Positions 50,187-53,100 of a stretch of 64,000 nt of DNA are shown here, piece by piece. The DNA lies in the IMG/VR virus record IMGVR_UViG_2529293141_000015, positions 1,630 through 65,629 of that record. One strand, 5' to 3'. The position numbers are program-made. This DNA comes from a virus. Lineage: Duplodnaviria; Heunggongvirae; Uroviricota; Caudoviricetes. Within the stretch, counting starts at the first letter, position 1, and the number at the start of each line of letters is the position of its first letter.

Positions 50187-53100
50187 TAATTCTGGTCAAC
50201 GACCAGTTGAGCGGATTCGCGTTTAAACTCTGCGCTGAAATTTCTTTTTTTCATTATGGCACCTGTGTTGTTCTGAGGTGAGCATATCACCTCTGTTCAG
50301 GTGGCCAAATTCAGTAAACCACTTCAGGCCTGATATGGAAAGGCCCCGAGTCAACTTTAACGTTAACCCGAGGCCCTGACCGTACAACCTTCACAAGTAG
50401 TAGGTTAGCGCCTCTCCATTCAGGAGACAAGCGTTATGTCGCAAAAATCGCTCATCACCGTCACAATTTGCATGACGGTTATCTTCACCATCTGGATGTT
50501 GCACGGTTCACTGTGTGAGTTCCGGCTGAATTTGTGGGGAGCGGAGTTTGCGGCGTTCTTACAGTGTAAGCAGTAGGAAAACCGCGACGGGGACGAAAGT
50601 CCCCGTCAACTGGTTGCTGAGGTTCAGCCGATATGGCACCCGTTTGTAGTGTATGTTTTATACAATGCAGGCTGACAGAGAGAGGTAATATTTATCAATG
50701 GTAAATAATAACCACAGAAAATGTTTTGTTTTTTCTGAGTAATACTGGTGTTATTTAGGGTAAGTTTTTGATGCGTATTGCATTCTTGTGATTTTAATCA
50801 TTAATTTTTCTTAACCCATTGATTTTAATATTTTATTTGCCTTGTTATTATGAGTAGTATCCCTGAAGACATTTGCGTTCCGAATGTCAACATATTTATA
50901 ACATGATTTAACATAGGGTGCACATCATGAAAAAGGCAAGCAAGCTGTTGTTGGCTTTAATGCCGGCATTAAGCCTGTCATTATTTTCTGCCGGGGCGTA
51001 TGCCAGTGGTTATTCCGTTACACCTGAAAGTCTGAATAGTAATTCAATGACTCAGGGTGACTTTTTGAAAGGTATCGGTGTATATACACAAAATGGAGAA
51101 CCATTAATTAAGCTTGAGAATGGTCAGGTTACTCCTCTTAAAGGGAATACACCAACCTCATTAAATATAGACGCTGTTTCCGGTAAATATTTGAAATATA
51201 CCTTAATTGATTATGGTAAAGCTGGCCTGACAGATACCGAGTTAGTTGCTCCAAGGGGAGACATCGTCTCATATTATGATTACGCGAATGAGACAGCTTA
51301 TTTTGTAAACACAAAAACCAATCAAATTCTGTTTAGTGCAGATGGCGAAGGAGTTGTCTCGACAGTAGGCGCTGATGGAAAAACATATTCAAGACATATT
51401 CCTGAAATTAGTGAATATATTTATGAAATTAAAATGAAGGCTGTGCAATATGGAGCCACTATTGACACTGGTCTTTCTGCTGCAGATGTAACAGATATTC
51501 ACGCCCGTCTGTCTTCTCTGGGCACCGGTAAAACTCAGGTTGGTGGCGGGGCAACAGCAGGCGGAGAAAACGCCACTGCTGTCGGTTACAACGCCACTGC
51601 AAACCATACGAACAGTGTTGCTGTAGGGGCTAACTCTCAGACCACTCGCCCCGATGAAGTTAATGTGGGGAATCGTGTAATTGGTGGGCTTCGTGATGGT
51701 GTTCAGGCTGCGGATGCCGCAACCTATGGTCAGTTAGAGCGCTATCGTATTGCAGAAGAGAATGCCCGTATTCAGGGTGATGCACAGACACTGAAGTCTG
51801 CTAATACCTACACAGATAACCGGGTCAGTACCCTGGAGCGTAGTACTAATCAGCAATTCCGTCAGTTACGTGATGAGGTGGAGAAAAACCGTAAACGTGC
51901 AGATGCAGGTATTGCAGGAGCAATGGCGATGACTGCCATTCCTGTTGTTGAGGGTAAAACGTACTCCTTTGGTATGGCTGCAAGTAACTACCGTGATGAG
52001 CAGGCTATCGCAGCAGGTATGCACTTCCGCACCACTGAAAATTCTGCTGTACGTTTGAATGCTTCATGGGATACCCAGAACGGTTCAGGTGTTGCTGCGG
52101 GTATGTCTGTCGGCTGGTAATTTATTTTTTGCGGAGAACGCCAGCCGTGTTGGTTATCGGAAGCGTTCTCCGTCATCCTTCTGTCGCTGAAGACACAGCA
52201 CAGTCACATTGTTCTTTTTTGTGGTGAGAGTGTGAGTGAAAAAATTCTCCGGTATATGCAGCGTGTGGTGAGAAATTCCCGCAACCCTGAATTTATGAAT
52301 GAAGTTAAAGACGCCTGCTTTAAAAAGCAGGCGTTTTGTTTTGAGGCACCTGATGGCTTTCTGGTGCTGCGTTCTGTGCTCAGTGCTGATGGTATCCCTT
52401 ATGTTCTGGTGTTGCTGGGCGTGTGTACGGGGAGTAACAGTGTTGAGCGTTATCTGCCGGAGGTGAAGACATTAACCCGTCTGGCTGGCGGACGTTGGGC
52501 TGAATTTCATACGGCAAGGCGGGGATTTATCCGGCTGGGAAAACGTCTGGGCTTTGAGCGAATGCCGGATGATGAGGATGGCTTCATGGTGTTCAGGATA
52601 GCGGTCTGACTGCCACAGTTTTCATCATCGTGTTTAAACCAACATTGCAATTCACATTCTGACCCTGCTCCGGCAGGGTTTTTTTATTATCCAGGGGGCC
52701 ATTATGGGTGGAAGTAAAGGTGGTGGTGATACCAAAGTAAAACCAACAGCAGCGCAAATAGCACAGGAAGAAGTGGCCTGGAAAGGGTGGCAGGATTACA
52801 AAAATATCCTCCGCCCGGCTGAAGATAACTTCATGGAAAAGGTCGATGACCTGAACAGTGAGCAGCAGTACGACAATATTGCTGGCACCACAAATCTGGG
52901 GTATCAAAAACAGTTTGGCGAAGCGCGGAAGGAGCTGGCAAGTAATCTCACTCGGTCCGGTGTTGACCCGTCCAGTGGTCGCTTTAACGCGGTAATGAAT
53001 GCGAACCAGAGTGATCAGGTAACCGGGCAGATTGACACAACCACACGGGGGCAGGTATCGCAGGCAGATAAGTATGTTGCCGGGCTACAGGATGTTGCTG

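Follow-up and report, generated by a model that had tools for sequence, protein, structure and literature searches.

The window referred to throughout is the whole 64,000-nucleotide stretch of DNA at positions 1,630 to 65,629 of the IMG/VR virus record IMGVR_UViG_2529293141_000015 (Caudoviricetes), and coordinates are those of this stretch. The window carries, as part of an E. coli prophage, a hok toxin locus of the subfamily with 46-residue peptides of the form MSQK...FLQCKQ. The locus is flanked by the genes for a phage tail-tip fibre and a YadA-like protein, and an insertion sequence (IS) lies within the leader upstream of the toxin gene. The parts of the locus, observed and predicted, are as follows (SD, Shine-Dalgarno sequence).

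49001-49029, plus strand: predicted hok promoter, read by hand, with −35 TTGCCG (49001-06), a 17-nt spacer and −10 TACAGT (49024-29).
49036-49076, plus strand: 5' fragment of the predicted hok mRNA, about 41 nt, with the tac element GGGUGCC..CGGCUGA and a first small hairpin, ending at a GGC target copy.
49077-50326, minus strand: IS3-family insertion sequence, IS911-like, 1250 bp, with terminal repeats, open reading frames and a GGC duplication.
50327-50435, plus strand: remaining hok leader, with the other GGC copy, the anti-SD-like box GGCCCC (50342-47), a hairpin, a GAGG box (50370-73) and the SD hairpin; aligns with RF01794 positions ~40-157.
50333-50430, minus strand: predicted Sok-like antisense RNA gene, with −35 TTGTCT (50430 to 50425), 17 nt, and −10 TAACCT (50407 to 50402).
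50436-50576, plus strand: hok-family toxin coding sequence, 46 aa, intact, with the same sequence as WP_000078907.1 and peptide 72_1589.
50585-50608, plus strand: 3' stem-loop GACGGGGAC GAAA GUCCCCGUC, predicted to be stable, with compensatory pairs.
50624-50641, plus strand: fbi-like 3' element UCAGCCG AUAU GGCACCC, complementary to the 5' end of the mRNA, from which the IS now separates it.

The toxin gene and its relatives

The open reading frame (ORF) at 50436-50576 has 46 codons from an ATG start (product MSQKSLITVTICMTVIFTIWMLHGSLCEFRLNLWGAEFAAFLQCKQ) and an SD sequence AGGAG at 50422-50426, 9 nt before the ATG, much as an earlier note on this DNA had described in reporting a 46-codon ORF with a good ribosome-binding site. 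Residues 5-24 form a hydrophobic stretch the length of one helix, whose Kyte-Doolittle mean over 19 residues reaches 1.88, and S25-L26-C27-E28 provides the L-C-E motif of the Hok/Gef family. The assignment to that family made in the earlier note is borne out by this transmembrane stretch and SLCE motif and by the profile search it had named as a refuting test, which gave a match: against Pfam HOK_GEF (PF01848) the peptide scores 33.2 bits (E=4e-8; gathering score 22 bits), residues 8-44 covering profile positions 6-42 of 42. Its top NCBIfam match is HokA (NF007290), its nearest relative in K-12; the score is 38.4 bits where the equivalog cut-off is 89, and so the peptide is HokA-like and not a HokA ortholog. 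All seven residues (M1, C16, T18, L30, C31, E32 and E41) that a recent survey found to be more than 80% conserved among 1,264 Hok peptides are present at a constant offset of −4, as read by eye, and C27 and C44, both encoded directly, represent the two cysteines between which a disulfide has been described for HokB.

ORFs of 46 codons are frequent, 70 ORFs of at least 20 aa overlapping the 4.5-kb stretch around hok, and the frame might be a chance one with an accidental resemblance to Hok. The odds of this are negligible, given the Pfam E-value above the gathering score, the 56 relatives from E. coli, Shigella and Salmonella that 5.8 billion searched proteins yielded (nearly all of 46 aa and named 'Hok/Gef family protein'), the conserved RNA architecture in the flanks and codon changes that are synonymous only, the published 72_1589 coding sequence differing in 6 codons, all of them synonymously. 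The chance reading was rejected on the Pfam score, the homologs and the synonymous-only change, and judged by its sequence the ORF is a type I toxin gene of the Hok/Gef family.

The gene is neither new nor unannotated in public data. RefSeq WP_000078907.1, 'Hok/Gef family protein', is identical to the window peptide. It is an annotated product in other E. coli genomes, where its gene likewise follows one for a tail-tip fibre and precedes a YadA-like gene, and so the description of the gene as unannotated stands for the ORF track of the earlier note and falls for RefSeq. In O157:H7 the identical 46-aa gene sits after lom. The hok cassette as a whole, of ~390 nt, is present in 1,602 of the 5,426 complete E. 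coli genomes, with up to 7 copies per genome, and in 198 phage records, mostly of Shiga toxin (Stx)-converting phages including 933W and VT2-Sakai; it is also found after ogr, at the end of P2-like prophages, and a literature search on hok in P2-like prophages returned nothing relevant.

The window peptide is entry 72_1589 in Table S2 of Escalera-Maurer et al. (bioRxiv 10.1101/2025.08.07.668861), a member of the 60%-identity cluster 72, a 'high abundance cluster', and was cloned there as pAZ3::72_1589. In that work 42 of 45 tested Hok homologs were toxic and the three named exceptions are other peptides, so that 72_1589 is toxic by elimination; for the toxicity that the earlier note had set as a refuting test, the literature thus already has the answer for an identical peptide. 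The catalogued gene and that of the window share the same 46 aa and the same setting, after tail-fibre, J or lom genes in lambdoid prophages including those encoding Stx. The examined public copies are uninterrupted, whereas that of the window has an IS in its leader.

Some other records of the gene deserve mention. An alignment-based search for related loci returned 7, of which three are probable contaminant contigs: near-identical enterobacterial hok cassettes on short contigs ascribed to Xanthomonas pisi (L003, 857 bp), a Planococcaceae metagenome-assembled genome (L004) and Vagococcus sp. (L006), for which assembly contamination rather than transfer is most likely. In the original 933W record (AF125520, locus L018) the 46-aa hok ORF, at the equivalent of 1686-1826 between lom and L0129, is unannotated, and a Shigella Stx phage record names it 'MokW-like host killing', a misleading label since HokW is a different peptide. 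The possibility that the window gene is hokW of 933W/Sp5 was considered and rejected, HokW being a different peptide of 51 aa (PMC8621323). The hokW-sokW pair of Sakai prophage 5 resembles the window locus in being a hok/sok pair on a lambdoid Stx prophage, and has been shown experimentally to be a toxin-antitoxin pair of type I, dependent on RNase III and Hfq, which speeds lysis and phage release after induction (PMC8621323). In contrast to the 46-aa peptide, HokW is HokD-like (MKQQKAM...) and has another position in the phage, and so the 46-aa gene is a separate cassette.

The insertion sequence and where it cuts the hok unit

The ends of the IS at 49077 and 50326 were set by exact inverted-repeat matches, the repeats being imperfect and starting TGAAGTGG. 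Its orfA runs from 50290 to 49952 and its orfB on to 49107, both on the minus strand and with an A6G slippery site (AAAAAAG) between them, so that the orfA-proximal end faces hok. A 3-bp direct repeat of GGC (49074-76 and 50327-29) flanks the element. With a length of ~1.25 kb, inverted repeats, orfA/orfB with the A6G site and a 3-bp duplication it is an IS911-like element of the IS3 family, and so the 'IS911' label given earlier holds at the family level, while the Prokaryotic Genome Annotation Pipeline name for 100% identical copies is 'IS3-like element ISEc52 family transposase'. Since the IS ends at 50326, 109 nt separate it from the hok ATG, which agrees with the 110 bp first noted.

Removal in silico of the IS and of one GGC gives a 425-nt empty site that matches in one piece, at 99.8% identity, in NZ_CP075632.1 and at 99.1-99.5% in five further genomes. 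That the window locus differs from the intact allele by 1 base in 425 makes the insertion a recent one, and neither IS-hok junction was found in the 5,426 complete E. coli genomes, from which the insertion is real, recent and apparently private to the source strain. A second IS copy lies at 7155-8404 on the plus strand, flanked by a CTC duplication, and because each copy has its own 3-bp duplication (GGC, CTC) both are simple insertions. The two 1250-bp copies have identical ends and stand in inverted orientation 40.7 kb apart, with no inversion so far, and such a pair could mediate inversion across most of the prophage.

Where the IS has entered the hok unit is seen from an alignment of 12 loci, which come from lambdoid and P2-like prophages in E. 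coli, E. albertii, Citrobacter braakii and two subspecies of Salmonella. They are homologous from a promoter-like motif, TTGCCG-17-TA(C/G)A(G/T)T, to a few bases past an invariant GGCACCC, the flanks being unrelated, and these two limits define the unit of ~390 nt. Its start coincides exactly with the −35 of the predicted hok promoter. The consensus of Rfam family RF01794 ('sok') opens with GGGUGCUUGAG and extends to the hok AUG, which is why the match falls on the hok-sense strand; its score is 34.2 bits (E=9.5e-6, gathering score 59) for the uninterrupted allele, where the match starts at GGGTGCC (position 6059 of locus L001), and 18.2 bits in the window, the IS end appearing as a long insert after model position ~30. 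On the alignment with RF01794 and with the uninterrupted allele, the hok mRNA is predicted to start at about G49036, the IS enters after nt 41, and the remaining mRNA would run from 50330 to ~50641.

The earlier note had placed the IS in the regulatory leader of hok, and this was right. It had further placed it where the promoter and sok region would be expected, which does not hold: the predicted promoter and the tac element survive upstream, across the 1.25-kb IS (49001-49076), and the predicted sok gene and its target lie intact on the other side, where the 109 nt beside hok hold the anti-SD box, the GAGG box, the predicted Sok-like antisense gene and the sequestered hok SD. Nor does a mok frame overlap hok in this allele, even where no IS interrupts it. 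Of the elements the earlier note proposed to look for beside the IS, an fbi-like element and a predicted sok were found and a conserved mok was not; a tac element and the anti-SD and GAGG boxes were located as well.

IS disruption of chromosomal hok loci, mentioned in the earlier note as frequent in E. coli, does have its examples in K-12, with IS150 at hokA and IS186 downstream of hokC/gef (PMC3562002). The IS150-split hokA is the direct and closest precedent for the window locus. HokA shares the MxQK N-terminus, SLCE, AAFLxCK and both directly encoded cysteines, its reconstructed mRNA starts GGGUGC and has a 3' GCACCC, and it too has an IS3-family element in the leader upstream of hok that parts the regulatory elements. 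The two peptides fall in different 60% clusters of the survey (93 for HokA, 72 for the window peptide). IS150 lies 32 bp upstream of hokA, inside mokA, and cuts sokA off from hokA, the mokA and sokA on either side of it being annotated as pseudogenes, whereas in the window the IS lies 109 nt upstream and the predicted sok is still attached to hok.

RNA structure, mok and the predicted antisense gene

For the uninterrupted 353-nt hok RNA the predicted folding energy is −152 kcal/mol, shuffled sequences giving −116 ± 6 (z=−6.1). In the minimum free energy fold the 5' end (GGGUGCC..CGGCUGAU) is paired with the 3' end, and the same closing helix is predicted in the RNAalifold consensus of 11 loci, which also includes a hairpin burying the hok SD and pairs GGCCCC (50342-47) with the box containing GAGG (50370-73). 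In the tac/fbi helix 91.9% of alignment cells are paired, against 21-42% with slid partners. Such pairing is found in the uninterrupted allele and the family; in the window the 5' fragment at 49036-49076 is still complementary to the 3' fbi element and the IS splits the two partners. The potential for 5'-3' pairing is conserved, though covariation supports the helix weakly. GGCCCC could alternatively pair with the 5' GGGUGCC, in the manner of the R1 hok switch of tac/fbi versus tac/ucb (PMC9841398). Within the leader a hairpin, GCGCCUCUCC/GGAGA..GCG, is predicted to sequester the hok SD. In the 3' stem-loop three pairs (columns 316/338, 322/332 and 323/331) have changed on both sides and still pair across loci; with no T-run on the plus strand it is not an intrinsic terminator for hok, and is likely the 3' end protector of the processed hok mRNA.

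With plasmid R1 hok/mok/sok the window locus shares a small transmembrane toxin, a highly structured mRNA of ~350-400 nt, tac/fbi and anti-SD/GAGG pairing, a sequestered hok SD, an antisense gene in the leader (a predicted one in the window) and a protective 3' stem-loop. It differs in the length of the peptide (46 aa against 52), in belonging to a prophage and not a plasmid, and in mok, the subfamily having no start codon behind the GAGG box and no leader ORF that keeps its frame or length. An invariant in-frame TAG at 50406-08 closes the hok frame in the leader, and the sole leader ORF of the allele, whether interrupted as in the window or not, has 14 codons (50335-50379). A mok frame was sought by in-frame extension of hok, as a start after the GAGG box (50370-50373), where the hok leader has no start codon, and among ORFs at the GAUGUGG motif, and none is conserved; the leader ORFs of 11 loci vary in start, frame and end because hairpin-loop indels shift the frame. 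The GAGG box paired to the upstream GGCCCC is kept in the subfamily (loci L001 and L005-L015), as at the R1 mok SD, and without a following start. Without a conserved mok, the scheme known from R1, where Sok acts on hok by blocking mok, does not transfer step by step.

That no mok frame overlaps hok even where the allele is uninterrupted would also suit a cassette already without function when the IS came in, a relic in decay comparable to the K-12 chromosomal hok loci, on which the insertion fell neutrally, and in earlier work chromosomal hokA, hokB and hokC gave no post-segregational killing. Against this stand the sharp conservation of the stretch between −35 and fbi in four species and in prophages of different types, the coding changes relative to 72_1589 that are synonymous only, an mRNA structured far beyond its shuffles, compensatory changes that keep the 3' hairpin paired, the reported toxicity of the peptide and the activity of another prophage pair, hokW-sokW of Sp5, in aiding phage release (PMC8621323). 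A relic is therefore very unlikely.

The promoters are a matter of inspection. A sigma-70 promoter scan was run with a threshold of 9/12 to consensus; the hok promoter motif at 49001-49029 scores 8/12 and so was missed, and the antisense hexamers TTGTCT/TAACCT are weak, at 7/12. The latter were placed by eye on the pattern of the R1 Sok promoter, and AGGTTA, the complement of their −10, is invariant in the 12 loci. The antisense RNA predicted from this promoter would be ~60 nt long, from ~50395 to ~50335, with an unstructured 5' tail of about 15-19 nt, a 16-bp GC-rich hairpin and then CCUUUCC, and its fold is estimated at −29.4 kcal/mol (z=−4.8). The family consensus fold of the segment is stronger on the antisense strand (−16.8 kcal/mol) than on the sense strand (−7.2 kcal/mol), which fits selection for structure in an antisense RNA. 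Both the existence and the ends of the Sok-like RNA are predictions. The predicted gene lies wholly between IS and hok, the 17 nt past its hairpin being unaltered by the insertion. Its promoter (50333-50430) and the IS transposase genes (50326 to 49107) point in the same direction on the minus strand, and antisense read-through past the weak CCUUUCC tail into the orfA-proximal IS end could raise transposase expression.

Likely state of the interrupted locus

How an intact copy might work can be proposed from these elements. An mRNA of ~353 nt would start from GGGUGCC, its 5' end and the 3' GGCACCC (tac/fbi) would hold the full-length RNA closed, a local hairpin would conceal the hok ribosome-binding site, and an antisense RNA of ~60 nt from the leader would pair with the mRNA so that the toxin stays off. 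In the window the IS, ~41 nt into the predicted mRNA, would detach promoter and tac from all the rest, sparing the predicted antisense gene, the toxin coding sequence with its SD hairpin, the anti-SD and GAGG boxes and the 3' elements. The toxin gene would then lack transcription from its own promoter, any read-through hok mRNA would be unable to be switched open, and the antitoxin RNA gene would probably still work. For R1 hok every substitution of tac G4, C5 or T6 abolishes toxicity, the processed mRNA being left closed (PMC9841398), and by analogy a downstream transcript to which tac is not contiguous should remain in the closed form. Within the IS the promoter scan gave no promoter-like site directed at hok. 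With promoter and tac separated and no hok-facing promoter in the element, a silent toxin beside a functional antitoxin RNA gene is the likeliest state. Overall it is probable that the locus is a prophage hok/sok-type cassette whose leader was recently split by the IS, with the toxin intact and likely untranscribed and the antitoxin RNA gene probably working.

Several points weigh against this. The promoter scan, on both strands of the interrupted and the intact locus, found no site at 9/12, and so both promoters are hand-assigned inferences; for this subfamily the promoters, the antisense RNA and the silencing are all inferred from sequence. The RF01794 match, even at 34.2 bits on the uninterrupted allele, is below the family gathering score of 59. 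The covariation test for tac/fbi was not significant, with 68 of 500 shuffles reaching the observed score and 2 pairs changing on both sides; covariation is weak, and most of the helix is invariant. No mok is conserved, and so R1 offers no directly transferable mechanism. Read-through from the hok promoter across the IS is possible.

The last of these points leads to a different state, in which the locus is still expressed, by read-through or from a start inside the IS, as a long hok mRNA that would be held by the Sok-like RNA or partly deregulated. On the hok-sense strand of the IS the terminator-like sites are weak and their count within chance (3 against 1.8 expected), the 5' and 3' pairing partners are both retained in the window, and K-12 gef/hokC is reported to stay transcribed and regulated despite IS186 (PMC3562002). 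Such a transcript would have to run antisense to the transposase genes over 1.25 kb, tac would be 1.3 kb from the anti-SD box it must capture, no hok-facing promoter-like site was seen in the IS, and a deregulated toxin would be counter-selected. The outward −35 of IS911-type elements is located in the IRR (right inverted repeat) end, which in this IS presumably points away from hok and so counts against expression as well. Continued expression is on balance unlikely.

A more speculative extension of the silent-toxin reading is that the subfamily keeps the tac/fbi, anti-SD and GAGG switch without mok and under another control of translation, and that the antitoxin left orphaned by the IS neutralises the hok mRNAs of co-resident or incoming Stx or P2-type prophages. 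This is rather unlikely to be correct as a whole. Were it so, the GAGG box may be a ribosome standby site, or the antisense RNA may act via duplex cleavage alone, and an orphan antitoxin gene in the source strain would have an anti-addiction effect.

Elsewhere in the window, YadA-like genes (trimeric autotransporter C-terminal anchor) at 43545-44678 and 50918-52120, both on the plus strand, lie on both sides of the tail-fibre/hok region, their annotation being taken from the homologous loci L001 and L002. Two pairs of C4 antisense RNA and isrK, at 3702-3884 and 15096-15283 on the minus strand and ~11.4 kb apart, are Rfam matches at gathering level, as is an STnc100 small RNA at 24683-24896 (plus strand). 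Such a duplication of the C4/isrK module points to the presence in the window of two related regions for phage immunity or antirepressor functions. A 2806-aa ORF at 55398-63818 (plus strand) has as its counterpart in the homologous loci an LPD38 or LPD5 domain-containing protein gene of ~8.4 kb.

The case is an ordinary one and of little importance past correct annotation, which should name the gene a toxin of the Hok/Gef family and the locus a hok/sok cassette disrupted by an IS. To the natural cases of hok inactivation by an IS3-family element in the leader it adds one more, and it indicates that the antitoxin gene can be spared in the process. What is general belongs to the subfamily and not specifically to the window, namely a widespread prophage hok cassette that appears to have the canonical RNA switch without a conserved mok.

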